From Psammoneis japonica (Eukaryota), in NCBI GenBank assembly GCA_008632985.1, contig QPGO01000101.1, positions 124,001 to 188,000 of the forward strand: DNA of 64,000 nt, given 5' to 3'. A program made the translations under genes and the position numbers. Under the pieces are notes generated by a model. The model was not told where the DNA came from and ran no database searches. It saw nothing but the letters and a program-made list of their open reading frames with translations. Of this stretch, positions 1,163 through 64,000 are shown in pieces. How positions within the stretch are numbered: the first letter of the stretch is position 1; each line of letters begins with the position of its first letter.

Positions 1163-1175
1163 TTGAAAGACAACA

Positions 1176-2440: not shown

Positions 2441-4380
2441 AGATGATTGCAACCCGAATCCATCAAATGCATGGGTTCATTGCTGATCCTTCCAAATCAC
2501 TCTCACACAATGCCTTCCTGCACCTCAGCAACATGCCTGCTTGGCGCTGCTTTGGCAGACCTTCACATCTTTCTTTTCATGACTGCACATCTGTGCTCCA
2601 ACCACCCAAGAATCTTAAATCCCTCCTTGGTCTTAGCCTCAAGTTCATCCCAACACCTTGCTTCACCAACAATGGCAACTCACTCAAGTTCCAAGAACAT
2701 GCCCTTGGATGCTTCAAGCCAGACCTGGACATGCGCAACTGCTTTGCAAATGCGCCAATTGACAACAATGATGACTGCAACCCAAGAATGCACCTTCAAT
2801 CCAACTGGACTCCACTCCCTTGGAAAAAAACTAAAATTGTTGAATGTTGACACACGACTTTCAAGAAGAGACTTTTTAAAGCTCTTTGCCAAACGCAGAG
2901 GCAGAGCCAACCTGCTCCCTCACCAATGCCGCGCACTTGCCTGCCTGCACCAACAAGATGACTTTGTTGTCACCCAATGCAAAAACCTGGGCCCCATCAT
3001 CATCAAAAAAACTGTGTGCATCAAGATGGCGTTTTGCAACCTGAGTGCCTTCAAAGCCAACGTGCATGAACGCCGCATCAGAAAACTTCCAGCTGAGTGG
3101 ATCAAAGAACACAAAGCTGATCTAACCCTGATGGAATGCAAGCATCTCAAACATCGCATTGAGACCAACAAAACTCTGTTCCCTGTCTTCTGCCTCACTC
3201 TGAAGGTGCACAAGCCCCCACCACTGAAATCCCGACCCATCGTCTCCACAAGCGGCAGTCTGCTCTGCGGCTTGGGCATCTGGGCAGATGACAAGCCACA
3301 AAAAGTCATGCGCAAGCAACCATCTTACTTTGAAAGCTTGTTGGACCTCAAGAATGAACCAGTCCAAATGGCAGCACCACCAAACTGCCTTCTTTTTGCC
3401 TCTGATGCCGAGTCCTGCTGCTCGAACATCCCAACAAACAAAGCCCTTTGAGCAATTGCGGCCTGCCGATGACAACACACGAGAATGAATTCCAAGATGC
3501 ACCAGTGGAAGCCCTCGTTGAAGCCCTCCGCATCATGATGAAACACAGTGTCTTTGCTTTTGGTGACACCTCATGGCTCCAATGCAATGGGCACACCACC
3601 CGCCCAACCACATGCCACGCTCTTTTGTGATTTACACGAAGCCACTCTCCTGGAGGAGTTTGGCACAAACCTTGTTTTCTGCAAACAATTTGTCAACGAC
3701 GTCTTTGGCATTTGGCAAATCACCAAGTCAACCTCCGATGCTGCTTGCTGGAGTGCATTTGCCTCCAGAATGAATGACTGCGACATCAATTGAAACTTCA
3801 TGGACCTCACCATTGCACTCCAAGGCTCCCACCTGCACACCACTCTCCATGAAAAAGAAATGAATTCGCGCCTGTGCATCCCTCCACATTCAGCTCACCC
3901 ACCTGGAGCACTCACCAGCCCAATCATGGGCATGCTCTTCTGCTTCAAGAATCTTTGCTCAGACTCCACCAACGAAAAACAAAGATGAAACTTCTTTGCC
4001 ATCGACTGCTTGCTCGAGGCCACAAGCCCAGCAAGCTCCAACCTGTCTTCCAAAAGGCACACAACCATTTCTTTGGCAATGAAACAACTGTGGACAAGCC
4101 CCCAACCAACCCTCCCATCTTCCCACATGTCCCATGCCGTCCGAATGACCCGCCATCAAGCGAGTTGCAAAAGACATGGAAAGGAACGATGGCCTCTCCA
4201 CCCTGCTCCCAGCCACTTGCCAACATTCGAAATCACAACCAACAACACATTGGCCCAGACTGCATGATTGTTTGCTGCAATTGGTCACGCAACCTTGGCA
4301 ACCTTCTTTCATGCCGCGTCCTTCGCACCTCCAACGGCCCCCCAGTTTCGTCTCACTGGATTGCAAACAGGGTGGCCACT
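2441..4380 (+). pseudogene. PLE reverse transcriptase remnant
   Basis: Motifs as listed for the element. Several frameshifts and stops; catalytic DD changed to ND (GTC AAC GAC) and Tyr positions changed to Cys/His. Confidence 0.85.
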
Positions 4381-4382
4381 GC

Positions 4383-4383
4383 A

Positions 4384-4423
<40 letters not shown>

Positions 4424-4733
4424 ACAGAGCGTGGTGAATTGATTTGGAAAACTCATTTGATCGAGTCTGTCCTCCCCCGCCACTCGGATCTTTTTAACAC
4501 GACAACCTCAACCACGCAAACAACAACAGCCGGCCGCTGATGAAGCCACCGCGAAAGTCTCACACTCCTGACTTCGGCCAACGTTGTTGTGCCTGCCATT
4601 TGTCGAAATAGTTGGATAAATGTCCGAACTAGTGGCCCTGCCTTAGCTTCTCTTTATTCTTTGTTTGTCACATTTGACGGAAAATCGGCTTCGCCGATTT
4701 CATCGTTCGTTCGTTCGAGAGAGAGAGAGAGAG
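4383..4733 (+). repeat. 3' pLTR-like direct repeat of the PLE, flanked by (GA)n
   Basis: Second copy of 841-1162. Less mutated in its 3' half, where it keeps TA and CG. Confidence 0.9.
4520..4590 (+). ncRNA. Type I hammerhead ribozyme in the 3' pLTR
   Basis: Stem I GGCCG (4532-4536)/CGGCC (4575-4579), extended by acaacaac/gttgttgt; core CTGATGA (4537-4543); short stem II; GAAA (4553-4556); stem III GTC/GAC; NUH = CUU at 4572-4574. Confidence 0.8.
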
Positions 4734-9700: not shown

Positions 9701-11924
9701 TCTCACCCAAATGGAGCTGACCACACAAGTTCAAGCTTGCTTTTTTGCTCTGAAACAAGTTTCAGGGTGCCATGCCTCCCCCAAGGTCTGCGTCAATGTT
9801 GCATGTGGAACAGTCTTTGAGCACTTGAATGATGCCATTGTGGAGGACCGACCCCACCCAGCCCTTGCAAGTGTTGCACCTTGCAGTGTGGTCTCCCTTT
9901 GGCACCACACCTGGGGTGTGTGTCTGCTGACCAACTGTTTGGGCTCTTGTTGTGACAAGAAGTGAAACATGGGAAGGATGAAAACAGCAGAAGGGGATGT
10001 GATGCATGTGTTTTTTGTCATTGACACACAAGGATGAAAGATGTTCCATGCTGACACAGTTGAGTTTCTTTGCAGTGGCAAGCTTTGCAGCAACCTTGTG
10101 AATGATGGAACACAAAGCAAGCATGACAAGCACCAATGAAGCTCACTTGATGTTGAGTCCTTGAAGAATTGAGGTTGCTGATGGCAAGCCTCACAGTGGA
10201 GAGGAATCCTCCTGCCTGATCACCAGATGACCAACAACCAAAAACACCACAACAAAGTGCACCATCTGGGGTTTTCATGATGGAGGACAATGGCAAAAGT
10301 CCAGCACACAAAACAGGCACAGCAGCACATGTTGCATGTTGGAAAGACATGTGACACACACACAATTCTCACATGCTCCTGTGATGGTCTGGTCATGACA
10401 CACTGCACTGATCTGTTAGAAATAAACATGCAACAAAGTGCAGGATGAGTTGAATTCTTGATGCTGAAGCATTTGAAGTGGCTGCCTTGTTGGTGAAGCA
10501 CTCCCTCACCAAGTTTCATGTGCCTTGGCCACAGCAGCATCTGTTGCAGCCCATCTGCTGCTCAAGTTGGTCCAATCTCATGGCATTGAAGCACTTGTGC
10601 CACTGCTCCCTTGCTGCAACCTTTTGGCAATGAGACCTTCTCACTGCCAGGGCCAGACCAAGAACTTGTGCTGAGCAAGTGCTGCCAGCAGGCTTTGTGC
10701 TTGCATTCTTGCAAGCATGCTTGGCACTTTCCCTGAGCTGCAGTGCAGCCAGCTTCTCAGCAACAAAGGTGGCTGGAGATGGTCAGGATTGACTGCTTGC
10801 AGCAAGAACATGACATGCTGGTGGAGTGCATCAGAGCCATGAAGAGCCTGTCTCTTGAGGTGCTGACACAACCCCAGCAACATCAGAGTGCACGATGTCG
10901 CAACATCTGCACACATGACAAAAATGCATTGCCACATTATAAAATCTGCTTGTCCACACATGATGGTTTTTGTCATTTAGTTGGTCATTGATCTCCTGCT
11001 GTTCTTCATGTTTGAACACAGGTGCTTTTTAATTTTTGTGCTCAGCCTTTTTCACATCTGCTGACGATCTTTAACGACAAGCCAAACATTGCAATTGCAT
11101 GCAATGAAATTTTCATCATGCAAAGTGTGCACCAATTGTTCAATCAATGACTGTGCTCCAATTGGCCTGTTCGTCCGCATCGTCCTCTTCATTCCACATG
11201 TCTTGTCCGCTCTCTTGCAAGAATTTCAAATGCACACGCCGCTGCTGCGTTGGATGTTTCCTCGTCACCGTTCCAAAAAAGCCACACTGCATTTCTTGCA
11301 TTTGGGTGAACATCACGAGAGCAAGAGGTCCCTCGAAATGCAGAATCGCATCGCTGCTCCCCTCTTGACGTCATGTCGTCTGCTTCTTTTTCTCTTTCTT
11401 CATTTTTCCCGTCCTGTTTTTCTCTTCCTTCTTCGTCTTGGCGCCGCCTGTTTTCACCGTCTCCGGCGTCTTTCCATCCAAATCCTTCTTTTTCATTGAT
11501 CCCGTCGCCGTCACCTTCATCGTGTGTCACTTTGTTTTGGATCCATGTTTCTGACTTCTCTCCATGCCATCCCCATTTCCGAATGTTTCTTTGTGATTGT
11601 TCGCGTGCGTCACTTGAAGGCACCCACGTGTTCTTCACGCACCTTGACGTGCATGTAGAAATCCATGTTGTTTTCCAGTGCATGCACCCTTTCTCCTGAT
11701 GCTGTTCCACACAATGTTTTCTTCCATCAATTCTGCACTCCACACTGCCCTTTTCCGGCACAATCTCACGCAGGATTTCTCTGAGAGAAGTTGCGTGCGC
11801 GTCTGGCAGGTTTTTGTGTGTGAAACTCCAAATCCTGCCAGGCGCGCATGCAACTTCTCCCACGCACCACTCTGGCATGTTTCCACAGAAACCAGAATTT
11901 TGTGACTGATGCACAACCAATCTG

Positions 11925-12899
11925 GTGAATGCAATGGCGGACCCACAACCACAACAATCAGAGCATCAGAAGAAAACCATGTCAGATGAACTCCGTCCAT
12001 CCGCTGCTGAGGATTTCCATCGCCGGATGATGGAGACAGTTGATGGTTTTGTTCACGCTGACGCTGCTCGTTGTTTGGAGGAACAGAGAGCAAAGGATGC
12101 AAAGGCTGCTGTGTCAAGATCGGCAGAAGCAATGGCAGAAGCCCGTTGTGCCGTTGTGGCTGCAACGACCGCACTTGACAGTGCTTTGTTAAATCCAGCA
12201 ACAACCACTCGTGAATTTAAGCACATCTGTGTGCAGTTGATTAAGTCATCGATCGAGACACACTGTTCAGACAACGACCACATTGTTGCAGTGGAAAATC
12301 ACAGCAAAGCAGAAATGAGTTTCCAACACTTTCTTCGCGGCAACGCATTTGACACAAAAGAACTGGGGCTCCCAATCTCCGTTGCGGGACATCAAAAATC
12401 AGAATTGAGGCTGGCAAATTCTGACACAGATGCCAACAGAGCAGTGGAGAGGGAGCAATCTGCAATTGACAGCATCAACAAATCCATCCACCGCCGTGCC
12501 GTGCCACTCCTTCGAAGGTGACATCTGTCACAGCCGCTGCGCGTCCTGAAGGCTAAAATCACGTTGCTCCACGGGGCCCTTGACGATTTGAGAAGGAAAG
12601 ACGTTGCCTTGCAGTGACAGTGGCAAGCTTTGTGTGATCTGTGGCCAGGCACAGATCAAATGCGGGGAGGTGCATGGACCGCAATCCGGGCTGTGGACGA
12701 AGAAGCCGTGGCAAGAGAAAATGTCCTGCAGCTGGCATTGAAAATCGAGGCACAATTGGTGGCTGTCAACCAGCCTGACCACAGCACCAACTTTCAGCAG
12801 GCGATTGTGGCTGCCAGGGAACATTTCATGGCGCAGGATGACTGGATGGACCGTGTGAGTGGACACTGCATGGAATCCATGAGGAAGCAATTGCTCTAA
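11925..12899 (+). pseudogene. Probable accessory ORF of the Plavaka-type element (convergent with the transposase)
   Basis: Helical ORF pieces 11925-12521 and 12630-12899, with the same TA-depleted, CG-retaining composition as the adjacent transposase. No family recognised. Confidence 0.35.
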
Positions 12900-13346
12900 A
12901 AATGCACACACTGTGAGTGAATGACAGATTGACACGCGCATCCGATTTTAGAAACAAATCTGACCAACAATTCCTTCTGTCCTGTGTGGCCCAAACAAAT
13001 GGGGCCTTTTCTTGCGCTTCCACTGCTCCTGGACATTCTTCACAAACCAAAACATTGTCCCCAATTGCTTTGACAGGGACAACACACAGCTCAGGTGAGC
13101 ACTGAGTCTTCTCAGGCATTGAAAGCCAGTTGTTTCGTTTGTGATCAAGCTGCCAGCGACTGACCAAGTCTGCATGCTGATGCCGTTGCCTCACAGTTCT
13201 CTGGTCAGCTTGACAAGCAGTTGGATGGACAACTGCAAAAATCGATCCTGTGTCTTCCTGTTCGAAGAAACACAGCAAACGGGAGGGAAACTGTTGACTG
13301 CCCTTTCGTGTGCAAAAGGTCACACAGGCAAAGTCATGCCGTGGTC

Positions 13347-14150
13347 CTTCGCTTTTGGAATCGGGGTGCGCACGGTGTGCATCCCTCCCGCTTGCATTGC
13401 AAAACTCTGTCTTACAAGTCAGGTGTGTGTTTTCACTGTCTTCACCAACACAATCCTCCCACTTTTCTGACATGAAGTTTAGCAACACAGGATGAACTTG
13501 GCAACGAGCATGCTCGCTGTTCCACCCAAACGTCACAGCGCCGATCCCTCGGTTGCAGGTGAGAGTGAACGCACTTCCTCCTAGCGTGTGATTGTCCGTC
13601 CTGACTCTTGATGATTCCTTTTTCCCAGTTGGCAAAATCCAACTGTCAGCTGAAATTGCGGCGTTGAGCCTCATTTGGTCCTCCATGCGCGACACGACCT
13701 GCTTCAGAAAACTGTGAGGTTGCGTTGTTGTGCGGCAGATGACGGCAGCTTCGCTTTTGGAATCGGGGTGCGCACGGTGCGCATCCCTCCCGCTTGCATT
13801 GCAAAACTCTGTCTTACAAGTCAGGTGTGTGTTTTCACTGTCTTCACCAACACAATCCTCCCACTTTTCTGACATGAAGTTTAGCAACACAGGATGAACT
13901 TGGCAACGAGCATGCTCGGTGTTCCACCCAAACGTCACAGCGCCGATCCCTCGGTTGCAGGTGAGAGTGAACGCACTTCCTCCTAGCGTGTGATTGTCCG
14001 TCCTGACTCTTGATGATTCCTTTTTCCCAGTTGGCAAAATCCAACTGTCAGCTGAAATTGCGGCGTTGAGCCTCATTTGGTCCTCCATGCGCGACACGAC
14101 CTGCTTCAGAAAACTGTGAGGTTGCGTTGTTGTGCGGCAGATGACGGCAG
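13347..14150. repeat. 402-bp near-perfect tandem duplication (13347-13748 / 13749-14150)
   Basis: In-frame 134-aa repeat in ORF 12826-14175. CTT microhomology at the junctions; two mismatches seen by eye. Confidence 0.95.
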
Positions 14151-15922
14151 CTTGAAAAAGTCTTTCAAGAGACATTCCCCCAAGCCAGCATCAAAGTTCA
14201 TCGCATGTCTGCAACAACAAAGAAACACTGGGAGATGGAGTGTTTCATGAAGCTTTTGAAGCTTCCACCCGCATCCTTCTGTTCGTGGGACGAATTGCAC
14301 TGTCCGGTCAATGAGGAGACGGATTTTCTTGTTTATTTTCTGAACCGATGAACTGGGAGTTGCGCTTGTGATGGGTGGATCGCCTGGCCTGTGCCATGCG
14401 TGGAAGACAAGAAGGTCCTCGAGCAATTGAATGAATTGCCGGACGCTGCAGCCAAGTCTTTTTCCCTTGCATTTTTTCTTTTTTTGGTTGTCGTCACCAT
14501 CCTCAGCCTCACTCTCCTCTTTCTCATCCTCATTTTTGTCCCAGTCACCCTCTTTGGACTCCTCTGACCTTTCATTGTCAGAGTTGTCCAAGCACTCACT
14601 AGGTTGGTGGTGACTCTCAAAGTTTGCTTTGGGTGTCTTGCGATTCTCTGGAACAATGGGTTCGTCTACATCCTTGTCAAGGAAGCATGACTCACATGCG
14701 TTTCGTCCCTCGCTGGTCAACAGGAGAAGGTAGAAAACAAAAGCCATTCCAGCCCAGTGGTGAGAGTTGAGGAAGGCAAGCGACGTTGCTCCTCCTTTGA
14801 AGTTTGTTCGCAAAAAGGATGCTCTGCAAGTTGACTGGTGATTGCTGAAAATCCTTTCCACTGTGCTGTCCACCTCACTTGCGACCACAGGTGTCATGCT
14901 GTCTACAAATGAATTGATCACCCTTTTCAAGGTGCTGTTTTCAAAGAGATGCATCATGTCGCTTGCTGTTGCAAGGGTGACGCCGCATGGTTGTGCGCCA
15001 AAGTCTGCCTCAAAAAGACAGTTGGCAGGTGCGTTGTGTTGCTTGAGGCAATGCAAGATGCCCAACCAGTGCTTCCTTTCTTGGTCTGATCTGTCATCGT
15101 CGTTGGCCTCAGTTTGCACTTGGTGGAGATCCAGTCCTTGGATGAAATCACATTCAATCCATGGGTCGTCCAGTTTGTTGAAGCCAGCCAGGCAAAAACG
15201 ACAGCAACGTTGATGACAGTTGTGACCTCCGCATCGTGCGACAAGACAGTCGCCGCTTTTTGCGTCTCCTGTGATGAGAACGATCAGTGGGATTGCTTGG
15301 AGGCATCGCATCTCATCCCCTCATCGCACGCATGTTTTCATGCCTCCTTTTCTCATGACTTCCAAAAGTGGCTCCAAAATGACACGCAAGCAAGTGTGGC
15401 AGTCTCTCAACGAGCGTCCCTTCTCCGCCTTGCGATTGTTTGAGAGATTCTTTGCCGCAGATGACGACATCTTTTCCAAATCTGGGAGACAACCAGCTGG
15501 TTTCCAGACACTCTTGTCTGACCATTTGTTGAAGGCAACATGTGCAGAGGTCATGATCACTGGTTCTCCGCAATGTGATCCCATCCCTTGTGTCCTGCCA
15601 GTCTTGTCGAGGCAAATGACATTGCGCTCGAGAAATTGTTTCTCTGGGTCAGTTGTCCGTTCTTCGTAACTACGCCTGTGCCACTCACCCGCCAAAAGGC
15701 ACTTGTCATCCGGTCCCTTCGCTTTGCACTTCCCAAAAGGATTGTCTGGATCGGCCATGTTCTCTCTGCTGCACCACAGGTGAGGATCGAGCAAAAGCTG
15801 TTCCCAAACCTTTGTGAAATCCCATCTTGGCACTGACACTCGTTTTGGCAAACCGGTTTTGAAATTTTTGGTTTCTAGAGTGACAGGAATAGACTCGCTG
15901 GGTGGAAGAGGGAAATGCTTGG

Positions 15923-16312
15923 GACGAGTTCCAGGTCCAGGTGGGACCTCGCACTGCTGAACTGTGACATCGACAGTTTTTTGAATCACGTCGCATGTCG
16001 CGCACGTAGATTTCTACGTGATTTTTTCGACATTTTGTGTCATTTTACGGTGCACTTGTTGAGCGATCCGTCCAACAACTTTTGACATTTTTTGTTACAG
16101 CGCGATTCTACAATGTCTTAAGAATCGCGTGGGGCAGGCGCACTTGCAAAAACGTTGAGTGGCAAGAGGCACAATTGCACCACAAACTTGGCCGTTTGTT
16201 TGATGTTGAAGACAAACACATCCATTGATCAAATTCTCGTAATGCGGAGCTCGCACGCAGAATTCTACGGGCCCAATGTCACACGGAGTCCCACCTGGGA
16301 CTGGAACCCATC
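15923..16312. mobile_element. 390-bp MITE with ~25-bp TIRs and 4-bp TSD (TTGG)
   Basis: Left end GACGAGTTCCAGGTCCAGGTGGGAC; reverse complement of right end GATGGGTTCCAGTCCCAGGTGGGAC; TTGG at 15919-15922 and 16313-16316. Removing it restores the transposase frame (..ALTK-HFPLPP..). Confidence 0.9.
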
Positions 16313-17399
16313 TTGGTTAAGGCACGCATCAACTCTTTTCTCCTTGGCAGAACTGTGCCAAGCTTGATGTTGCTGTTGCCAGCGTGCCTCTCAATGAAAT
16401 CAACAGTGCAATCGTGCAATTCCAGGGGAGCACCACGTGTGTCCATGAGCTTCTTGCACAACTCCACACAAGCTCCGTCAAGATTTGTCAAAGAGGGAGT
16501 AGAAGCCAAGGCCTCTTCTGCAGGAGCGTCATGCCTGATCCCCAAACGTTGATCCTCATCGTTGATGTCCTCTTCCTCCTCCATTGTCACGTCCAACACT
16601 GCAGCAAAGGATTGACCACTGCCAACATCCAAATCGTTCATTGCCAAAAGTTCAACTCCTTGCATGCTGTGGTTTGATGAAATGGAGGACATGTCGTCCA
16701 TTCCGTGCAGCGCGTCATCCGGGGAGGGGAACAAGGGGCTGCTGCTCGGATCACTCGTTGAAGATCTTGGGAATCTGCTGCAAGTTGATCGCCTCGGATG
16801 GGTTTTGTCATCATCAGAGGACGAAGAGGAAGAACTGCCACTTTCTTCGGGTGGCCCCTCTGTTGTGGCAGGAATGTCGCTTTGATCTGGGATTGGATCT
16901 TGGGTTTGCAACTCTTGGGCAACTGAGTGACACGTCGGTGAGCATCTCCAATGGCAGGCTGTTCGAAAAAAACTTTGGCCACAACCGGGACAGAGAAGAG
17001 GGTTTCCGTCCATTGCAAATCAGACAATGTTGACAGGGCCTTCATCAAGACTCATGCTCGTTGTCCTTGTCTTGTGGATGAGAAGGGAAAAAAAGAACAA
17101 CACGCAAAAATGGCGGGAAATTGGCAAACATTGCATTGTCTTCCAGATTGGGATGATTCTTGTGGGTGTGGCGCATCTGCACTTTGATTTTTTATCTGGC
17201 ATCCACAACGAACATTGCACTTTTTATTTGCTGTCAAAATGCAGGATGTTGTCTCCGTTGAAACGCAATTGCAGCCACATCAAAAAGTGAGTTGGGCTGT
17301 TCGTTGTCATGTGCAAATGTGTTTTCAAATTTCAGTGTTGCTGACAACAATTTGTGCAATGTCATGGAGAAAAATGGAGTGCCTGGCTGTCTCAACACG

Positions 17400-18756
17400 A
17401 CCCAAACAATGGCTGCACTGTTGAACAGCACCACTCCTCTCATTGTTGCCGTGAAAGATCAAGATGTCGTCTCCAGCACAACCAGCAAAGAAGAGAAAGA
17501 AAAATGAGACTGTTGAGCCAATGAGCCCGAGACTTCAGGCAGTGTTGAAGAGAACAGGTGTGCAAGCAGCGCATGGTGCATTGAAATCAGAAGCAGAGAA
17601 GGTGGCTAGAAATGATCTCTTTCCACAGGTGAAGTTTCTCAGTCCATCAGAATTGGCAAGCAATGGGAGCGTCTCAATGTTTGTCAAGAAACAGATTGCT
17701 GGTGGCAACATGGACACTTCAAATTGGTCAGGAACTTGGGAGGAATGGGCAAAAAAGGCGGTAAAAAGGCAAATTGACAATCGCAGCAACACGGTGTGTT
17801 CGGCTGTTGGGGCGGAGGCAATGGCCCGTAAGTTGAGTGACCAATGTGTGTGATTCGAGAGTTGCGTGCATCTCACAAGAAGATGACGGTGATGCTTTGT
17901 CTACATGGGCATTGTCACTGAGGAAGAGGGAAAGGAAAAAGAAAAGAAACTCAAGGCGGCAGTCAGGAGGAAAAAGCAAAACAGGAAAAAGTCAAGCCGT
18001 GACAAGAATCAAGAGAATGACATCCTGCTGTTTGTGCTGACATGGGATCTGTTTGGCCTGGACACTGTCGCCGGCGGCAAACGAAGGAACAAGCAGGCAC
18101 ACAAGTGGTTCTGTGATCACATCCCACCTCAAACCAAGCAAAAGCAGGCATGGAGTCGCGCCGTCAAAACTGGGAACGCACAGGTCTAACAGTTGTTTGT
18201 GGCAGGTGATGAAGCTTTGGCGCCATTGGCTGTGGAGAATTGTTGGCAGGTGTGGGCATGCAGGAACAAGGAGGAGGCGGTGGAAGAATTGGGTGAGGAA
18301 ATGGAGCCCGAAGAAACAAGGCCTGCCCCTCGGTGCACGAAGCCAAAGAAACAACGAGTGTCTTGGGGAGACGATGGAATCAATTGGTTCAACGATTTGT
18401 GCAAAGAGGTGACGAAAGACAGAGACTCCAAGGAGGGCAAGGAGTTTGAAAAGTGGCATGCGGAGATCAAGAAAAGCGAGCATGAGAAGTCCGGAGAAGC
18501 AAAAAAGAAGAAAAAGAAAGCACCGACCGGTGATGCGGTTGAGGTGAAGGCAATGAACAGCCCAATGGTGGAGAGCAGCAGGGGTGACAATGGCAACGAC
18601 GATGAGCAGGAGGAAGGCGCAAAAGGCAAAACGGATGACGGAGGAGATGAGTCCGATGATGATCGTCAGCTCAGTTTAAGAGAGTTGCAGCAAGAAAATG
18701 TGTGCACAGTTTGCACGGCACTGGGTCATTGCACTGCAGATGCAACAAGGGATTGA
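17400..18756 (+). pseudogene. Accessory ORF divergent from the Plavaka-type transposase, degenerate
   Basis: Pieces with LFPQVKFL..W, then DEALAPLAVENCW..PRCT..SWGDDGINWFNDLCKEVTKDR..FE and an acidic tail. Resembles transposon-associated ORFs I recall from diatoms (not verified by search). Confidence 0.45.
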
Positions 18757-20864
18757 CCCAACCGGTGAAATGCTTTTCTCGTTTAAAATGATGTTTGTGA
18801 AAATTGACAAACCAGGGATTGTGTGGAAATGCAATCACGCATTGGCACATGGCAACAAGGTGGAGGCAGATGTGGTGATGTGGACACAGTGAAAAATGGC
18901 ATGCATGATTCTCAACAAGTTGTTGCAATGTTGGTGTGGCAAACTTGTGACCAGAGGTTGGCCTTTCATCACATGACAACAATGTTTTGCAACATTTTGA
19001 CAAATTGTCATCATGTAAATCTACACATTTTTAACATTTCGTGCACTCTGATGAAAGCACCTGCACTTTTAATCTTCATGTGGCACACATTTGCAGTTGT
19101 GACCACATCTCAAAAACATGCTTCAATTGCCTCCAACACATTGAAATGATGCAAAGAAACCAAACAAAAACAGCACCAGAATCAAAAATGTGGGCATTTG
19201 CAGCAGCTGCAGCATGTGTGCCCACTCCTCAACCTGGCCACCGCTGTGGTTTTCAATCCCAGCTGCAGCTTCATGTCCAGGTGTTGCCAGAAAAGACATG
19301 TTGTCTTTTGAAAAAGGAGATGCTGCTTGGCATGTCAAAAGATGCCCATGCAGAGTGCCTTCTTTTGCAGCATTCTTTGGCTTCCACACAACCAGCAAAG
19401 TTCTTTTGAAGCACAGAATGCCCCCAGCAGCACACTGCTGAATTGCTTGGATCTCTTTCAACCATTGGTTTTGCTTCTTCATTGCAGTGGAAATTTGACA
19501 AATTGCATCTTGCAAGATTCTCCAGGCAAGACTGTGCTGCTTGCAATGATGCAGCAATCACAGCAAAGCAGAAGCAAGTGTGCAGTCAAAGTCTGGCCAT
19601 CCCTGGCATGTGTTGGTTCAAAGAACCAGGCATCCAGTGCACTTCTGCTGTCACTTCCAAAACCAAATTGATGAACTCTCTTCACACCACCAGAGCAGGT
19701 GCATGTTGCACAAAATTGAAACGGATGCCCTCCCTTTTCCCCTCATGATGCAACATTGCTCCAAAAATTTGCTCCACATTTGTTTGGCTGCAAGTGGCAG
19801 TTTCTCCAAAAAATCTTTCCTTGCTCTTCTCTTGTCTTCAAGTTTTTGTGCCAGGGCACAACAAGCAAAAAAGTGCTGCAGCAGCAAGTGCCTTTCAGCC
19901 AAGCACTCAAGTCTGTGGCCATGCTGGATAGAGAAGTTTTTGCCATGTTAAACTTTGCTTCTCAACCAAGCACCAACATGAACAAATGTTGCATGGCAGG
20001 AGCAAGAAAGCTGTGGTGCTCTGCAGCACTTTTTTGGGTGCTCAACTCCAAAAAATGCAAAACACCATGAAAGCTTTTCAGCACAAATTTTTGGATGTTT
20101 TTGTCCAGAAATGTGGTCAAAGAAAACTGGCATGAACACCAATTGTTTTGTCCATGCCTTTTCATCAACCAGATTGAACCCAGGCCAGTGGAAAACATCA
20201 GTGCAAATGCTCTTGATTGCAATCATGCTGCCAGCAGCACAATGCACCGGGGAGCATGCCTCTGCAGCAAGCAGAGGAAGGAGTGACCAAACACAACACA
20301 ATCACCGTTGGCAGCAGGCTGCTTGCGCTGGAAAGGGAAATGTAACTCGCTGAGTCAAGTTGATGGGACAGGCTGAGAGCAAGCTGCACAAAACAGAAAA
20401 AAATGACTCGTTGATGCAGCAGGAGTCTGAGCCCATTGTGAGTGGCCCAGACTGGTGGATGTCACTTGACAAAACAAGTGGTCCTTGTGTTTGCAATCAC
20501 GAGTGACAGTGGTGTCGGGCAGATTTACATTGTTGTTGAGTGCAGGCGTTTGCAAGATGACATGATCGGATCGGCCCATCATTGTGCAGTGATAAAAAAG
20601 GGGCAAGCGAGGTGGGCACAGCAATCCATCTGTCTGCCATCAAACAAGTCCCATCTATGACGGTGAGGTGTGTACAAAGACACAGCAATTGTGCCGTACA
20701 GTGTGGATGCTTGTTGTGGTGGTTTGCAAAACTCAATTGACATTTTCAATCTCTCTCGCATTCTCTCTATTTTTAAGACTGTGCACAAACAATAGAAGTT
20801 GCTATAACTAAATTAGCAGTTACACCAAAAAGATACGAATGCTGACTCCTCCCCTGTCGTCTTG

Positions 20865-24214: not shown

Positions 24215-27200
24215 ATGAGTGAAGGAGACAATAATGCAACGGAGAAACAAATACCTCGTTTGTTAGTCGCCAGCAGAGACATTGATTACAGTACCGGTAT
24301 GATGAGGAGGAACTTACAAGACGAGATGATCCAGCCCGCAGATGCAGATTTCGTGAGTGGTTCAGGTGCTATTATCACTCGCCAATGCGGTAGTCTAGCC
24401 TCCCAGCATAGAGAGAACGCGACTGTCACGAATATAGTTGTAACACCGGAAGTGAATCCGTCAGATATATCAAATACAACCAAAAATACAGCGGATCTAA
24501 AAGATATTCCATGGTACCGCAATAAAAAGTGGAAAGTGATTGCACTGATTGCACTGATTGTAGGTACTGCAGCAGCTACTATTGTTGGTCTCACGGTCGG
24601 TGGAGGCGGTAGCGGTGGCAATAATCCTGGCCCTGAGGTTGATCCTGGCGAGCCCGAAGAAGCTGAGATCGGGCCGTTCGTAACTGCCGAAACGTCGTCT
24701 GAAATCATCATCATTCCAAAGCCATCTCAGCCTCCCATGGATCAGTTTAGCACGGGAGGGAATCGGACGAAATGCCCGCACCTTCAATCGGATTTGTTAG
24801 ATTGGCACAGTCCAACAACTTGGATGCCAGTAAGTGTTTGCTTGCCTTAAATGCTCGTCAATGTGCAGCCAATCTTTTATCCCTTACACTTGTTCTGCTT
24901 AGAATAATGTCCCTAGCAGCGGAGATGTGACGTTGCCCTTGAATAGTAAGGTTGTTATAACAGAAAGCATCGTCGGACAACTTGGAGTCGTTACCATTCC
25001 ACAATCTTCAGAGCTCATCATAGCAGAGGATTCAGCTAATGGGATTACTTTGAATATCAATGGAATGGAGGTGCAGGGCGCTCTCATCGCCGGATCGCAA
25101 ACTTGCCGATATGAGACAGAGCTAACCATTACGTTGCATGGCTCTCGTCCTAGTGACATTGATAGCTTTGGCGAGTCTCCAACGGCTACCACAACATACA
25201 AGGGGATATCTATCAACGGTGGTATCCTCAGTCTACACGGCAAGCGATACTTTCCAACTTGGACCAGGTTGGCGCAGACGGCCCCTGCTGGCCAGACCTA
25301 CCTACTCCTTCAAGATGCGGTCAACTGGCAGTCCGGGCATGAAATCGTTGTTACGACGACCGCGATTCACGATTCTCGTCACTGGCACCAGAACGAGGTG
25401 TTGACAATTGAGTCCATAGACATCAATCCTGTCCCCGGTGTAGGAGCCGCCGTATATCTGACAAAACCTCTCAGTCATAAACACATTGCCAACAACGGCT
25501 ATCAGGCTGAGGTTGGTCTGCTCACACGCAATATCCGAGTAGAAGGCGCTGCTGCCGATTCCGAGCCAGTCGACCCGGACCCAGGAACTTGTACGGGATC
25601 ATCGCATTTCGGAGCCAATATGGCTCCTTGTCCAGGGACCGATAAGACTGGATTTGGAGGTCATATTATCGTCCACTCGTCTGGAAAGGGATACGTCGAA
25701 GGTATTGAGCTGTTTCGCATGGGGCAAACCAATGTCCTCGGTCGGTATCCTATGCATTTTCATTTGCTTGGCGACTGTCCTGATTGTTACTTTCAGGATT
25801 CTTCGATTCACAGGAGCTTTTATCGATGCATAGCCATCCACGGAACTCACAATACGACTGTTTCTGAAAACGTCGCATACGACGTGATTGGATATTGCTA
25901 TTACCTAGAAGACGGCGTGGAAGAAGATAACAAGATCACCCATAATCTTGCAAGTCATATTCATCCTGTCAGCAATTACATTGCCAACAGTGGAAATGGA
26001 CAAACGATACCTGTGTTCTCTCAAAGAGCTGACCTAATCAATCCTGCAGACGTGACTGCAAGTGGGTATTATTTGACGAATCTCCACAATGACATAATCG
26101 GAAACGCCGCATCTGGCGGTTGGGCCGGTTTTGCCATGCCTGTTCTCCTCGCCCCGATCGGTCTACACAAGGACGTAAACATACGTCCGGCAAATCGCCT
26201 GACTAAAACCTTCAACGGCAATACAGCTCACAGCACCGGCTGGTGGTGGAGCCACGCTGGAGCCTTCTACTCGGGTGGATCGCTTTACTATTCTGATGGT
26301 GAACGGACACTCTTGGAATACAACGCGGGACGCGACCTGACGAACGGTCAGCGTCATCCATGCCTTGTTGACAAATGCGCAACAGTGAGCAACTGCAATT
26401 CTTACTGTCAAAGTGGTGAAAGGGCGTGGTTCAAGATCAGTAATTCCAAGGTCTTCCTCACTGCAAGCCCCGGTTTAAATAGCTGGAGTGGCCGGATGGA
26501 AGTAACTGACTTTGAAGCACATGATGTGGCGCTAGGCCTCGAGGCACTCGAGCCGGGCATTGGCATCAAGAATTTGCTGGTTAAGTGCAGATCCGGCGAG
26601 ACGTGGGTAATGCCTGGCAACGGTCCCCGCAGCGTACCAGCCAACGGTTTTTCCTGGTATGATACCGGACAAGAGCATATCGTTACGAAAGCTACATTCC
26701 GCAATTGTGGATTCAGGAATGACTTTCAACACAATGATGACTCCGTTACAAGAGGGTGTGACTCCAATCCTCTCAATGGATGTCACGCTGACTCCACTGT
26801 CTGGCGCATACCTAGCCATAGTGATCAGTTTACGCCAGAAATCATGCAGGCTACAGCCAATATTGCCTATGAAGATTGTGGTCGTAGGTTCAAGCTACAC
26901 GATTGGAAGGATAACAATAGCCCTTCAAGTGTGTCTGGTAGAACACAAAATTGGATGGACACTGACGGAACTGCATCGGGTCTTGGAGAACCGGTGATGA
27001 TTGGTTCAGGCCTTGCGGATGCGGGACACTGGTGGAAAGTGGAGCAAGACACAGTTCATGACCCTGATGGTCCTCTGGAATTCATACGAGTCAATAATGG
27101 GCCAGAGCGCGGTCTTGGACACGTTCGCTTCAGATGGAGAGATGATATCACCAATAGCGTCGGAGATACGACGTGTAAACATGGCAGGGGCTGCCCCACA

Positions 27201-27936
27201 ATCGGTCACATTCGCCACATTGGTTCCATGTTTGATGCTAGCAAAGACCCATCAGGTGGGCTTCCCATTACAGCGAACGCCGACGTTGCCGGCCCTGTTG
27301 GCGGGTTCCGGATGGTTGCTATCGCTCAATGATGGACCTCCAAAAAGGCTTCTGTTGAATAAGATTGAAGTAGATTCAAGGACACCACTCATGCTGGCAA
27401 TTCAATATCCGGCGAATACATCATTTTCAATCGTCGCCCGCGCTGCATATTGCTCGCCTACGAACACCCACTCCTGTCAAGAGACATTCAAACGAGTGAA
27501 CTCTATCTCGCATGTTCGCTTCAGCCAAGGTAATACGTATTATTTTGATGCTGCAACAAGCCTCCTTTGGATGCGAGTGATCCAATTCCCACAGACATTC
27601 ACAGGAGATAACGTCAACAGTGAATTTGCGGAGTGGCATCTATGGAATCTTGACACGCCAGATACTCGAAGGTGGAGTCCGAATGTGTACGCTCTTGATA
27701 GATACTCATTTGATGGCATCACGCTCCCAAAGTTAAATTCCCAGAATTACCTGGAGATCATTGCGGACTGTAATGAATCCATCCCTGGACACTGCGTCCA
27801 GCCTCCTGCCTACGTCGAACCTGAAGTGTGCTCCCCTGGACATATTCAGGTGGCCTATGACAAGTGTTGCAATAGCACCACCTCAACCGATTGTGAGGCC
27901 CTAATGCCGCCTCCAGCTTTATCACCAACTCCCTAA
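24215..27936 (+). CDS. G8-domain / parallel beta-helix protein (TMEM2/CEMIP/fibrocystin-L-like), type II membrane-anchored copy
   Basis: Exon 1 24215-24829 with TM segment; intron 24830-24902 (GTAAGT..TTAG); G8 then GRYPMHFH, SIHRSFYRC..HGTH, CYYLEDG. One extra C at ~27309 relative to the paralog shifts the frame. Confidence 0.85.
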
Positions 27937-39500: not shown

Positions 39501-39528
39501 TGGCATCCGATGGTGTCACATGGGAAAA

Positions 39529-39530
<2 letters not shown>

Positions 39531-39592
<62 letters not shown>
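39531..39592. repeat. (GA)n microsatellite
   Basis: About 31 perfect AG units. Confidence 0.95.
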
Positions 39593-39594
<2 letters not shown>

Positions 39595-57489: not shown

Positions 57490-57993
57490 AGCTACGATGA
57501 GGAGGATACCTTGCAGAGAGAGGAGAAGCACACGAATTGTGTGAAGTAGGAAGTATGAAGTATGTTTGATGTGCGGATTGTTCCATGTTGGAGGTTGGAT
57601 GGAGAGAATGCAAAGAATCGAAAAGATCTCATGTCAAAATGAGATCCTTCGTATGACAACGGTCGTAGAAATGATGTAGAAAAGACAAATCTTTTCGCGC
57701 GATTAACAACATACAAATTTATTTATGTATGAAGGGTAACAAACAACGTCATCTATTAAAATAATTAAAAATTATATATACATATAAACGTCGATCGCTT
57801 CACAAAATGAAACGGCAAAACGAGTCGATTGAAGCAAAACCCAAAACGCCAAAGAGGCAAGGTCATCATCTGTGCTTGTCAAGCAACTTATAAAGAATGA
57901 AGCGGTAAGAGTAATGATAAAAGAGATGAGCAGGAGCAGCGTGTTTCGTTTCGTGTCATTGCATCTGCTTTCTCACGCGACAGTGCTTTTTGT

Positions 57994-60900
57994 TTGCACG
58001 TTTTCGACGAAATCATTCTTCACAAAAGAAACGCATGGCTTGTTGTCATTGCAACGGCGCTGCTCTTTGTCACAAATGTCAATCATGATCCCACCACAGT
58101 CGAGTGCTGCATGGCAAGTCCCTTTCCCTTTCAAATGAGACAACCCAACAGAACCAAGACACCCAAACTGTGGCTTCGCGGCGGACCACAATTTCATTGC
58201 CTCGAGGATGAGCACGGGTGTGCCTGCATGAGAAACAGTCAAGGCGAGGTTGTTCATGCCATGCAAAGTGACAATGTGTCATCTGATGGTTGCGTGTTGG
58301 GTCCGAGTGCCATGAAATTGGGAGACAGTGACGATCTAACCACGTTGGGAATTCGCAAAGGCCTCTTTCAGGAAGAAATGCAAAAAAAGTGCGGACGCAT
58401 GTGCAAACATTACGACAACGAAGGTCATCCAACAACGAGGCATTGATTGACAAACAAGCATGTTGCAAAGCCTCTCTCACTTCAAAAGAATTTGGTCATT
58501 TTGATTCGGTTTTCCAGCCACAAAGGGCGGAGGCTGCCGACGGCCGACGATGCAAATGCACTGTTCAACAAGCGAGGGGGGGACCCAATGTTGGCACCCA
58601 CGGGAAGCATCCGAGATGTCTGTAATCAGACTTCTTGTGGAAATTTAACGTTGGAAAGCATTGTCCATGGATGGGTGTGATGCTTGACAAGGTCAGTCGA
58701 CTTGAGCGCGTAGTGAATCCAATTTTCGTCGCAACGAGTTACTGTGTGCTCACCATATCATTTTCTCTTTTCCACATTTTTTAGACGGAACAATACTACG
58801 CCGACAAAAGCAGTGGCCTTTCCATTGTGTTTGTGCAAGCACTACACGATGCACTGGACATTGTCGACAGGGATGTCAACTTTTCGTTTCGTAGTGTCGA
58901 CTCGGACGGCGACGGAACGGTCGACGCCGTCACTCTACTTCATTCTGGATATGGAGCCGAGTGGGGAGGCGAGGATGCTGATGGTCATGATTCAACGGAA
59001 CGGATATGGTCTCATAAATGGTCCATGCCTTCTTCTCTCCATTGGTATAGTAGCCGTGAGCGTATACGAGTTAACAAGTACAATGTCAACCCGTCCCTGT
59101 GGGGACTACGCGGTGGAGAAATTGGTCACATTGGAGTCATTTCACACGAGCTAGGCCATGCAATCCTATCTCTTCCTGACTTGTACGATGGAGTCGGAAA
59201 CGGAGGTACAAGTGGACATGGCATTGGGTCGTACGGTCTCATGAGCAACAGCTGGGGTTTCGATGGGACGCAGTACTATCCTCCAATCATGTCGCCATGG
59301 AGCAAGATTCAAATGGGATGGCTCAAGCCCAAGTTGATCACAACCGAGGGTACATTTACAATTGAAGCGTCAGCCTTTACACCCGACGTTTACCGGATCA
59401 ATCTCAAAAATGACCCTCAATCCTCCGAGTACCTTCTCATTGAGAATCGACAAGCTGCAAGTTTTGACGCCAAGCTGCCACAAGGAGGACTTGCAATCTG
59501 GCACATTGACGAAGAAGCTGGGCATTACAGAAATGGCTTTCCGTCACAAAGCGGATGGCCTCAAAACGGAAATCATTATCGTGTAGCATTGCTGCAGGCG
59601 GATGGGAGGTACGACTTGGAACGAGGCCGCAATCGCGGAGATGAAAATGACTTGTATCATGCCGGCGGGATCACATACATTGGCCCATCGGACGCAATCG
59701 GACCATTTCCAAACACCGACTCGTATCAAGATGGAATTGTTACAAAGTCTGGCATTATGATCCATAGCATCAGTCGTGCCAGCAACGTCATGAGATTCGC
59801 CGTCTCGTTTGTGGACAATAAGAGCGCACCACTCATGCTTTATACCGAGGAACCAACCACCCGACCCACGCCTATTCCAACTTCGAAACCAACCCGTATC
59901 CCGACTACGCCGTTCCCAACTATCGGGCATGCTGTAAGTAAAGAGCTTGCCACGTCCTTTCAAGGAGACAAGGGTGCCTCGGGCTGCATGTTTGACGTCC
60001 GACCGCTCAACAGCTTGTATCTTGATGGAATGGACATTCATACCGACTCGACTGGGTACCTTTTGATTGAGATTTGGACCAAGCCGGGAACGTATAAGGG
60101 ATTCGAGACAAATAACAGTGAATGGAGTTTGGTCAACAAAGAGGTGATGCGGGGCAAGGGATTGGGAAATCCGAGTCCAGTACCTTCCTTTCCGTCCATG
60201 AAAGTGGCGGCCAACCAATCCTTCTACGTGGCTATTCGGACAGGCGGACAAGTCTATTCCACCGCTCATGGGCAGCCAAGTAGTAGTGGCAACGATAAGG
60301 TGTATGCCTCGAATCAAGACATTCAAGTTCTGGAGGGTATCGGAAAGAAGGGTTACTTTGGCCGAAGCAACCGCAACCGACAGTGGAATGGCGTTCTGCA
60401 CTATACGGTGGGTGCTGGCAATGACCGCGACTCTACGCCGGCTCCAACCACTGCAAACCCAACGCCACGTCCCACACCAGCTACCAAACCATCAACTTGG
60501 AGACCATCGTCACGTCCCACACCGTTACCGCCAACAACATCACGTCCAACAACAATACAAGGAGAAACAACCTTGCCTCCATCTACTGCATCATCAATGA
60601 AAAAGATTTTAACAACCTTTCAAGGTAGAGATGAACAAGCCGGAATCATGTTTGATATGGTTGCCTTTCACCACGTCACCATTACGGGTATCAACGTTCT
60701 GATGACCACGTCGACGTCGTCGTCCGCCAGCATCGACTTTTTGGAAGTTTGGACTAAAATGGGCAGTTACAAGGGTTTTGAAACCGAATGTGTAGCATGG
60801 AGACAAGTGGGAGTCACCACCATTCGTGTTGTTGCTGCTACGACTAGTAGTAGCACCCAAAGCAGTAGGTCTCGTCGTCGACGACGTATCGTTTCGAGCA

Positions 60901-61718: not shown

Positions 61719-62709
61719 AAAGAATAGACATTTTTCCTTTGACATTTACGTCGTGAAATAGGGGAGATTTGAATCGTTATTTTGTGTTGTTGTTTCCAGT
61801 CTTGCTCGGCTTATTGAGATACCGATACGTGTTAACAAAAAAAGTAAAGTAGCAAAACCTGAATGAACTGCAGTTGATAACACACACAAGCCACAATTCC
61901 AATCCAATTTTTGTTTCTTCTTCTTTATACGTGTCAACTCGAACGTTTGGCTCTCGGTATCGCTCTCATGTTCAAAGTGTTGAGAGACTTGCTCCGTTTG
62001 CTGCTTCTGTGTGTGTGTGTTGTGGCACTGAAAAAATCCATCATCACGTTGTGTTTTTGCAGCAATGTCCCACAACATGAGCTCACGGTTGAATAATATC
62101 AACACAACCTGAATGACGAATGACGAGCGCACGCATGATCATGGCCGGCTCCAATCACCACCACATGATGTGTGTTTTCAACTGCAAATTGTCCAGCGTT
62201 GCATGATGCGCATTTACAGCATAATGTGCTGCAGAAAAAGAACAAAAGCACAAGCGTCTCACAATGAGCGACGGCGCCACGCACCTCCCGCTGCCATCAT
62301 GCTACCGGCGGACTCAACCGGTCCCGCTGCCTCAACCGGTCCCGCCGGCTGACTGACGGACGCTCGCTAGAATTAGCACGCACGTAGCCCTACGCACAAG
62401 CCGCCGCGATGGATGAGTTTGAGAGTGCCGCCACAACGCAATGATAACGCAAAGCGACTTCTTCTCGAAGGACATGCGATACAATCCTACCCTTGAAGAA
62501 AGCTAGAATACTAGAAGCTATACAATCATGTCTCTAAAGAACAACAAAATGCCACAAGTCTGTGAGTCATTTCAATGGATTGCTTGTCGTCGTCAACGGA
62601 CAACGCCGAAGATGCCGCGATGAGTCGAAAATCACAAAAAAATTGATCTCTTACCTTTTGCGCCAAGTTCTACTCTAGAGTGGCACTGTAGCACTCTAGA
62701 GAGTAGTGG

Positions 62710-64000
62710 CCCTAAACAGAGAGGCCATCCGCACGCACACCCACACCAACTGACTCTGCCAGCGAGAAGAAACAGCACGTTCGCCCCAACTCCATCTGTG
62801 CCCTGGTCCAAATTTCATCCATTGCACTTGCACCTCTCTACACCCGACTAGGAACTGAGTGCTCCAGGATCTGATTTCCCCATGTGAGCAAAGAGTGTCA
62901 AAAGACATCTGTCATGTAGAACATGGGCCTGGAAATGCCACTGCAAGCTTCAACGGTCAACGACAGTCACACTGGAAAATGACAGGCAAAATGAAAATGT
63001 GAGTGGAACAACGTGCACAATGATGATCCATTGGGGTTACATGTCACAGCATGCTCACTGGGGCACCTTTTAAATGTAGAGCTGAGTCGCCTTGCTGATT
63101 TTTATGCCCCCAAGCAACATCAGCGGTTCGTGGCATCCGCGCATTCAAGAGGAGGCGATGAACCCGCCAACACAAGCCTCAACCTTCCCATTTTACCCAT
63201 TGCAAAGCCTAGAGTCGTAGTTGCACCACAAAGATCTCCCAAAATAACGTGGACAACATTGTGTCTTGGATGATGATGACAACGCGGTTGAAGGGTGGGT
63301 GGAAAGGGTCAAAAAGGACCAGACACCTGTGCGCATGATCGAGACGCACCAAAAAAGGCTCGTGAGTCATGCAAGTTTCGTCAAAACGAGTCCAAAACTC
63401 AATCAATCACAACATGCTCACAGGGTCACCTTCTTTGGACCATGGAAAGGCTGTCTGACAAATGCCAATGTCGTGAGCATCCCCGAGACTCCATCGCATC
63501 GTTTTGTTCCCACGGCATGCACTTTCAAGAAATTGTTGTCGCCGAAAAACGACATGCTGTGATTGCGAGCCGACCAAGACCTTCAAAAACACATCAAGCT
63601 TGTCACAAGTCCAAATGAATGGCAAAAATAGATGCACCAAAAGATGTGGAGTGGGATGAAGCACAAGGCTCCCAAACGGATGTGCTTTTGTGATGACGAC
63701 GACGTGAAAAAGATGCCAACATTGCAGATGCAACAATCGACCGTACGAGACGATGTGTCCTCCTGTGAAGCTGCAACAAAGCACAAACAACATCTTTGGT
63801 GAGTGGACAAACGGCACAAAATGAGAAAACACAGAAAGAACTTGCCACGGCAACGTTGTCGACCATTCAGATGTCACCCGCACCGCGCAGCAATCGAGTC
63901 ACAAGTCGAGGCACGCAACCGTTTGTGCCGTGTGTCGCCATCAAAGCCCCCAGGAAACCAAACCAATGCATCAACCTCTTTGTGACAACAACAGAAAAAG
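62710..64000. other. TpA-depleted degenerate DNA running off the window end
   Basis: Few TA, CpG partly retained; no family recognised. Confidence 0.5.

Follow-up and report, generated by a model that had tools for sequence, protein, structure and literature searches.

The genome of Psammoneis japonica holds repeats that have lost nearly all of their TA dinucleotides and keep many CG dinucleotides, and other blocks that lack both, which raises the question of whether the two losses are separate processes or two stages of one decay. We addressed this question in a stretch of 64,000 nt (contig QPGO01000101.1, positions 124,001 to 188,000; hereafter the window), which contains a Plavaka-type DNA transposon, the first exon of an M6-family peptidase gene and several older blocks, and we searched the 91-Mb assembly for copies. 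TA is lost about 20-35 times faster than CG in the same stretches. With a probability of roughly 0.6, we favor the reading that a fast deamination of adenine and a slow deamination of 5-methylcytosine (5mC) operate there under one mark, and that the blocks that lack only TA are younger or earlier stages of the blocks that lack both. That the decay runs at two speeds follows from the counts themselves and is held with high confidence.

Dinucleotide composition of the window

TA and CG were counted per block and compared with expectation as the ratio of observed to expected dinucleotide counts (o/e). A preliminary description of this DNA had named three blocks that lack TA but retain CG and four that lack both, and a recount reproduced its composition for all seven:

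11040-18760, CG-retaining block, the transposon: TA 41 (o/e 0.083), CG 316 (o/e 0.67)
57990-58700, CG-retaining block, M6 exon 1: TA 4 (o/e 0.085), CG 34 (o/e 0.81)
62710-64000, CG-retaining block at the right end of the window: TA 14 (o/e 0.167), CG 57 (o/e 0.73)
18800-20400, block lacking both: TA 7 (o/e 0.058), CG 8 (o/e 0.10)
29000-31000, block lacking both: TA 5 (o/e 0.037), CG 18 (o/e 0.16)
37300-42200, block lacking both: TA 7 (o/e 0.023), CG 40 (o/e 0.13)
49000-51900, block lacking both: TA 5 (o/e 0.025), CG 29 (o/e 0.18)

The gene regions of the window have a TA o/e of about 0.6 and a CG o/e of 0.85-1.0, and relative to this genic level the TA deficits of the blocks correspond to Poisson P values from 1e-8 to 1e-77. 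The motifs quoted as examples of retained CG are also present (GCGCGC at 11842, GTCGCCGTC at 11504). Two of the block assignments need qualification. Block 11040-18760 does retain CG, as its o/e of 0.67 indicates, but it is not CG-intact, with 27% of the ancestral CG sites gone. Block 18800-20400 does lack both dinucleotides, but its first 250 bp are the end of the transposon, and this end was CG-poor from the start, with 7 CG as compared to 27 TA ancestral sites in 293 columns.

Decay of a Plavaka-type transposon

The transposon is inserted in older DNA and itself contains a younger insertion:

9800..10880, older DNA left of the insertion: TA o/e 0.03, CG o/e 0.015
10881..19053, minus strand, Plavaka-type terminal-inverted-repeat DNA transposon, delimited by its ends, termini and target duplication, in a middle stage of decay
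13347..14153, tandem duplication of 405 bp, private to the window copy, with 2 differences between the duplicates
14106..16013, minus strand, broken transposase reading frames, with homologues P0121-P0124 at 36-42% identity
15922..16312, small inverted-repeat element of 390 bp, nested in the transposon and missing from sister copies; the youngest layer
19054..20300, older DNA right of the insertion: TA o/e 0.03, CG o/e 0.05, no second DNA match in the genome

Inverted termini of 15 bp together with a 2-bp target duplication were found in 9 of 10 full-length copies; terminal inverted repeats with a short target duplication are a CMC-like feature. The window transposase frame matched the Pfam family Plavaka below the cut-off of 26.3 bits (E=0.003, 17.3 bits), while its homologue P0121 scored above it (28.4 bits) and the other three of the four intact homologues were unmatched.

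Of 1322 candidates, 40 were scored, and the best 29 were aligned as sisters with the window copy, so that the set leans to close copies; the 40 included 33 other matches at 88-95% identity over about 1.8 kb. Over its full length, the window copy has lost 262 of 297 TA sites and 99 of 363 CG sites, as compared to changes at 82 of 6044 other sites. The variable sites of the alignment split into two clean classes. At the 73 TA-class sites, the 30 copies read TG in 933 cells, CA in 931, TA in 263 and CG in 6, so that 1864 of the 1927 changed or gapped cells are TG or CA. At the 110 CG-class sites, they read CG in 2362 cells, TG in 462 and CA in 384, with 33 other letter changes, and the remaining sites differ by about 0.9% among copies. 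The suggestion that both routes converge on TG and CA is thus confirmed by the alignment. When 29 TG/CA-polymorphic sites were compared to homologous proteins, the matches were to TA in 42 cases, TG in 16, CA in 9 and CG in 4, and TA thus fits best as the ancestral reading.

The TG and CA letters could in principle be errors of base calling at modified bases in long reads, since a symmetric TpA modification that is misread per strand could leave TG or CA at random in the consensus. We consider the probability of this explanation negligible. Contigs from two public runs of one sample, possibly the sample behind the assembly itself, show 0 differences to M6 exon 1 over 419 and 414 bp, and 1 and 2 differences to the TA-free flanks over 1109 and 1575 bp. 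Because the TA-free letters are reproduced with 0-2 differences per 0.4-1.6 kb, the data argue against a base-calling artifact and for real DNA, and the two 405-bp duplicates carry identical TG/CA choices. Both differences listed for the right-hand contig are CG where the assembly reads CA or TG.

TA is lost faster than CG

In four unsaturated sets of copies, the ratio of the TA hazard to the CG hazard was 32.8, 33.7, 29.3 and 19.1, in agreement with the earlier proposal that TA mutates faster or earlier than CG. The ratio fell to 6.7 in the Plavaka copy, which is near saturation, and to about 1 in the old blocks; it was 3.4 in pooled, barely hit sisters, a set that includes one diverged subfamily copy. 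The TA hazard reaches 1.05 in targeted regions versus 0.003 at background sites. The slower loss is also elevated, with CG lost at 18-23 times the background in CG-retaining repeats and in one comparison at 18.5 times the rate of other sites. One small repeat family covers the entire path, with TA/CG losses of 3/2, 18/1, 19/3, 19/7 and 20/14 out of 25 TA and 26-27 CG sites. The nested element at 15922..16312, compared with four other copies, has lost 18 of 25 TA and 1 of 27 CG. Within the Plavaka family, per-copy losses of TA and CG showed no clear correlation (rho 0.23, P 0.23), a comparison that is uninformative with TA saturated.

The preliminary description spoke of two tiers of decay. We sampled 77 stretches of the genome, picked at round coordinates, as 768 1-kb windows; 258 of these had a TA o/e below 0.15 and 142 had a CG o/e below 0.3, of which just 2 had a TA o/e above 0.3. 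The CG o/e of the TA-poor windows runs continuously from 0 to 0.9, and on the hazard scale its spread is broad with one mode, as expected of decay to a floor. Rather than two tiers, the sample shows continuous variation, with an accumulation of windows at the floor. Saturation would be reached at about 0.5-1% divergence at other sites for the TA clock and at about 10% for the CG clock.

Age and nesting of the blocks

The target duplication flanks the transposon, and the left flank at 9800..10880 is therefore older than the insertion. In the nesting order from outer block to transposon to nested element, CG depletion decreases from a flank o/e of 0.02-0.05 to a CG loss of 27% and then of 1/27, and all three layers are without most of their TA. 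The same order is seen in divergence. CG-retaining repeats have sisters at 89-96% identity, while for the blocks lacking both there is either no match or, among long matches, none above 78%; for 29000-31000, only short fragments at 68-85% were found elsewhere in the genome. Divergence at sites that are neither TA nor CG is 10% and 21% in the two measurable old blocks versus about 1% or less in CG-retaining repeats, and CG loss grows with this divergence (1% versus 10-21%).

The CG-retaining blocks might instead simply have had CG-richer ancestors, which the preliminary description had named as a refuting case. This is true of the ends of the transposon, where 4 and 7 ancestral CG sites occur in 219 and 293 columns. 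The inferred Plavaka ancestor as a whole has an ordinary CG o/e of 0.90, and the explanation fails in the two of the four old blocks that have usable relatives. Compared with a TA- and CG-rich relative at 77% identity, 49000-51900 has lost 42 of 43 TA and 46 of 49 CG with about 10% change at other sites. The segment 38000-39400, inside 37300-42200, resembles a young Gypsy-type family in the 5' part at 69-72% and has lost 48 of 49 TA, 32 of 33 CG and 190 of 891 other sites. Since 46 of 49 and 32 of 33 CG sites of their intact-like relatives are gone, these two blocks had CG-rich ancestors, and we rate the explanation as very improbable.

Further observations concern the age of the blocks. An additional CG-retaining repeat has sisters at 89-94% identity, and the left end of the window is an intermediate block:

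34600-36013, additional CG-retaining repeat: TA lost 62/73, CG lost 17/68, other sites 10/1132
1-4400, intermediate block: TA o/e 0.04, CG o/e 0.36; its segment 843-1153 has an 84% copy at 4402-4712

Sequencing depth over the old blocks 9800-10880 and 19054-20600 is about 60 in run X1, like that of one version of the M6 exon, and these blocks may be hemizygous.

TA and CG losses share copies and sub-regions

The claim that TA loss is uncoupled from CG loss was not upheld when copies of equal age and parts of single insertions were compared. The right end of the window belongs to a young repeat:

62340..64000, young repeat of at least 1.7 kb that extends past the window end; left end approximate

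The window copy of this repeat has lost 62 of 91 TA, 5 of 84 CG and 1 of 1363 other sites, as compared to 27 of 947 TA and 3 of 835 CG summed over 11 close sisters, from which eight more distant subfamily copies were excluded. The intact sisters give the direction of the change without further assumption. Among copies with 0-6 other differences in about 1360 sites, TA loss ranges from 0 to 68%.

We also compared five young Gypsy-type elements (G000 C13, C59, C71, C120 and C295) that are kin of the 37300-42200 block. The differences between their paired long terminal repeats (LTRs) are nearly confined to TA; at TA, CG and other sites they number 8/0/1, 19/2/1, 15/1/0, 16/3/2 and 0/0/1. In the 3' 4.1 kb, which encodes the integrase, the five copies have lost 700 of 1075 TA and 61 of 1136 CG, as compared to 70 of 745 TA and 2 of 666 CG in the 5' part; the difference in CG loss between these sub-regions is significant (Fisher P 1e-10). 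In single retrotransposons, one part is missing 51-78% of its TA and the other 3-29%, and a copy whose LTRs differ at one site has lost 55% of the TA in its 3' part. A sharp boundary lies about 2.5 kb from the 5' end in all five elements; the 5' LTR and the first long frame keep their TA, and the DNA beyond the boundary was hit independently in each element. The shared boundary suggests protection defined by sequence or promoter. Copy number was considered as the cause of the half-hit elements and rejected, with 14 matches to the hit part versus 9 long matches to the spared part, the 9 including the distant copy in the window.

Where a site is mutated in both of two copies, they share the choice of TG or CA in 49-59% of cases, which shows that the copies mutated independently. 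Because CG loss tracks TA loss by copy (5/84 versus 3/835) and by sub-region (61/1136 versus 2/666), the two losses share their targets. The chemistries are separate, yet in the P. japonica genome they appear to share a trigger.

These data also limit the proposal that the TA:CG ratio could date insertions. A rough order can be recovered, but equally young copies have lost 0-68% of their TA, and a single insertion may be hit in one part and largely spared in the other. Both among equally old copies and along one insertion, exposure differs by a factor of more than ten. The ratio would record time together with the strength of targeting, and would show in which order stretches were silenced, not when an element inserted.

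Duplication alone appears to be a poor predictor of targeting, as indicated by a low-copy host exon:

57990..58700, plus strand, first exon of an M6-family peptidase gene, low copy, with in-frame stops in exon 1 only

At 24 of 29 TA sites of the second copy, the window copy reads TG or CA, and it has lost CG at 14 of 42 sites, while the reverse loss is seen at 6; the second exon has changed at few of its TA sites (8 of 61). Exon 1 has one other copy in the genome, which keeps its TA and has equal depth in run X1 (54.3 and 53.7), and this copy is likely the other allele or a single paralogue. Since a low-copy exon is hit, duplication alone seems to predict targeting poorly. That one version is hypermutated and the other keeps TA possibly reflects allele-specific silencing. 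Conversely, a G8/CEMIP gene pair in the window (24671-28291 and 44567-48189), 94.5% identical, has normal TA and CG, and close duplication alone therefore does not appear to be a trigger.

Several results weigh against the reading that we favor. One 5' region has lost 44 of 150 TA and 0 of 134 CG, which is short of full coupling, and TA loss is flat with distance to CG and with CG density. On the raw scale, the CG o/e of TA-poor windows is fitted best by a two-component mixture (means 0.16 and 0.55). A constant-ratio model with 4-mer context rates predicted 2.6% TA survival in the Plavaka family, where 12% was seen; site effects or a slowing of the process lie outside this model. In bulk repeat DNA, the TA and CG that survive show a weak anti-phase at about 172 bp (z -3.5), a pattern not seen in the alignments, and family searches of the genome for deaminases returned an ordinary-looking set with no decisive candidate enzyme.

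The mixture, the region with TA loss only and the bulk anti-phase would also fit truly uncoupled processes, with TA hypermutation having its own targeting and the tiers representing unmethylated and methylated rather than young and old repeats. The chemistries are separable, as transposase relatives of other organisms have lost CG without loss of TA (e.g., CG 0.02 with TA 0.50). Transposase loci in metagenomes had a TA o/e of 0.40-0.67 in 34 of 34 cases, in a search that needs intact motifs and hence does not show absence elsewhere. However, the CG-retaining repeats already shed CG well above background, CG loss follows TA loss by sub-region and copy and rises with other-site divergence and nesting depth, and one small family covers the full path; we consider uncoupled processes unlikely.

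Sequence context and candidate enzymes

Per strand, TA loss is 0.35-0.51 in TAY, 0.21-0.34 in TAG and 0.09 in TAAA, the most resistant context. The order of preference is TAY > TAG > TAA, with TAT equal to TAC, and TACG is not the top context. A>G changes outside TpA amount to 111 of 22963; before a pyrimidine they occur at 0.017 (AAC), 0.016 (CAC) and 0.014 (AAT), and before purines at about 0.002. For comparison, non-CpG G>A changes in the Plavaka core amount to 53 of 18362; the corresponding Gypsy figure was excluded, as residual TA sites contaminate it. In a test for same-strand runs, the same-strand fraction was 0.55 (null 0.52) in Gypsy and 0.48 (null 0.49) in Plavaka copies, giving no clear processivity, although many rounds of mutation could blur such runs.

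An error-prone polymerase of the Pol eta type, recruited in T:G mismatch repair after deamination of 5mC, could write A>G at TA and would account directly for the co-targeting. In the Gypsy copies, TA sites that lie within 50 bp of a CG lost from the same copy show a slight excess of loss (P 0.001). This effect is missing in Plavaka, a local-residual test gave P 0.32, there is no gradient with distance to CG, and same-strand runs are not clear (P 0.05-0.1 in Gypsy, none in Plavaka). The signature of Pol eta is WA, with AA a substantial target, whereas in these copies off-target changes are as frequent at AA as at CA, much rarer than at TA, and dependent on a pyrimidine on the 3' side. The TAY context and the off-target pattern appear to fit a deaminase with a preference for 5'-T and a 3'-pyrimidine better, and we rate the polymerase as quite improbable.

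A lesion on thymine is an unlikely alternative, though the most probable of those considered. A modified T in R-T-A that mispairs with G would give T>C with the same two-speed, co-targeted kinetics, and as TpA is self-complementary, A>G in TAY and T>C in RTA are one event in the data. No special adenine deaminase turned up, which favors this alternative, but we know of no enzyme that makes such a lesion at TpA, thymine hydroxylases not having been searched for. A-to-inosine conversion gives a clean transition, as seen in the Plavaka alignment, and TadA-type enzymes show a matching 5'-U, 3'-C preference on RNA (UACG), according to the available part of PMC13170351.

Under the reading that we favor, one silencing mark would bring both an adenine-deaminating enzyme, which acts fast, and 5mC deamination, which acts slowly. 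The TA change would be a conversion of adenine to inosine on DNA that is fixed by replication, and the CG loss at 18-23 times the background would be 5mC deamination. The shared trigger would be silenced, CG-methylated chromatin, with an onset that may differ between copies and parts of copies. Sites are seen to stop changing after the first hit, and both strands are hit equally. That a DNA adenine deaminase makes the TA change is, in our estimate, an even proposition. More tentatively, a chromatin-guided adenine deaminase could constitute a genome defense that reads silenced, CG-methylated chromatin rather than duplication, erases TpA several-hundred-fold above background, can knock out one host allele, leaves a two-speed record of silencing and is the same system as in Bigelowiella, a distant rhizarian alga.

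The deaminases found were a TadA-like protein, ADAT2, a dCMP deaminase, a deaminase-oxygenase fusion and two A_deamin genes. The fusion (L149 319-1791, G000 C79) combines a zinc deaminase domain with a 2OG-Fe(II) oxygenase and probably serves nucleobase metabolism. No RNA-binding domain was noticed in the A_deamin genes (L280 and L281; G000 C40 and C79), one of which is likely ADAT1; no usable hit was obtained for the other. The genome also has several intact C5-methyltransferase frames. Some copies lie in TA-depleted DNA and are themselves hit (L156-L158, L162 and L165; G000 C301, C297 and C28); these are likely transposon-borne. Frame L159 2348-3508 (G000 C34) has a weak chromodomain match in the upstream frame 1231-2046, and this pair resembles the chromodomain DNMT4 type of diatoms, as described in the available part of PMC9998398.

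Surviving CG are spaced by about 170-175 bp in TA-poor DNA (L071-L108, L221-L259 and the window). Two independent sets gave an amplitude of 0.060 and 0.077 for this period (z 9 and 7); half-decayed DNA gave 0.10 and normal DNA 0.009, and the GC and AT controls were nearly flat. The period was seen in one young Gypsy copy and not in the Plavaka site losses; it looks like a nucleosome-scale footprint. Nucleosome phasing of the losses themselves was rejected, as a period of 155-165 bp in the five Gypsy copies (P 0.017) was not reproduced for single sites in the 30 Plavaka copies.

Significance and comparison with known systems

At 20-35 times the rate of CpG decay, the TpA mutator is not a by-product of it. 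That the two start in the same places would tie an A:T-to-G:C mutator to the methylation and silencing machinery and points to where to look for it. Most differences between young copies sit at TA sites, and divergence-based repeat ages are therefore inflated in such genomes. The half-hit young retrotransposons and the hit and spared sisters are ready-made pairs for methylation and inosine mapping. If a chromatin-guided deaminase is indeed at work, the pattern is a record of when each stretch was silenced.

In diatoms, DNMT5 methylates transposable elements at CG, and DNMT4 is a relative of RID, according to the available part of PMC9998398. The CG loss described here resembles 5mC-driven CpG decay in being a symmetric change of CG to TG and CA in repeats at about 20 times the background, in a genome with C5-methyltransferases. 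It differs in that a second, faster clock runs beside it, and no protein of P. japonica was assigned as an orthologue of DNMT5. TadA and ADAT enzymes likewise favor a 5' T(U) and a 3' pyrimidine, but in the part of PMC13170351 available TadA acts on RNA, in a 4-base stem-loop motif, whereas both DNA strands are hit in P. japonica; the part of PMC10661471 available held no information on TadA context. P. japonica has an ADAT2-like gene, as do most eukaryotes.

The closest parallel is Bigelowiella natans, for which the comparison rests on the available text of a preprint (10.64898/2026.01.13.699255). It reports A>G/T>C hypermutation restricted to TpA on integrated viruses at about 1000 times the background, in some lines only, with an adenosine deaminase proposed and unproven. 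In both species, A:T to G:C changes occur almost only at TpA and on both strands (933 TG and 931 CA in the Plavaka alignment), at hundreds to 1000 times the background (62/91 TA versus 1/1363 other sites in the right-end repeat). The process is confined to foreign or silent DNA in B. natans; in P. japonica repeats are hit and genes spared, but a low-copy host exon is also hit. In B. natans, it acts de novo on two integrated viral regions with an approximately twofold TpA depletion, whereas in P. japonica, DNA transposons, retrotransposons, small repeats and a host exon are near saturation, and about a third of the sampled windows (258/768) are affected. The words CpG and diatom do not occur in the main text of the preprint as available, and a literature search that covered few subscription journals returned no diatom report of TpA loss. 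TpA-restricted hypermutation itself is thus known, and what is new is the TA:CG rate ratio, the co-targeting, the TAY context and the hit on a low-copy host exon.

Repeat-induced point mutation (RIP) cripples ascomycete repeats copy by copy after insertion by dinucleotide-specific transitions, together with cytosine methylation. It makes TpA from CpA in strand-coordinated runs, is triggered by duplication, and is premeiotic and dependent on RID/DNMT4. The process in P. japonica resembles RIP in that repeats are crippled copy by copy by dinucleotide-specific transitions. It differs in that TpA is destroyed, which is the opposite base pair and direction, and in that there are no clear strand runs. 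As to a trigger by duplication, 11 near-identical sisters are nearly untouched, the hit and spared Gypsy halves have similar copy numbers and an exon with two copies is hit, so that in P. japonica most near-identical elements with many copies escape and an exon in low copy number does not.

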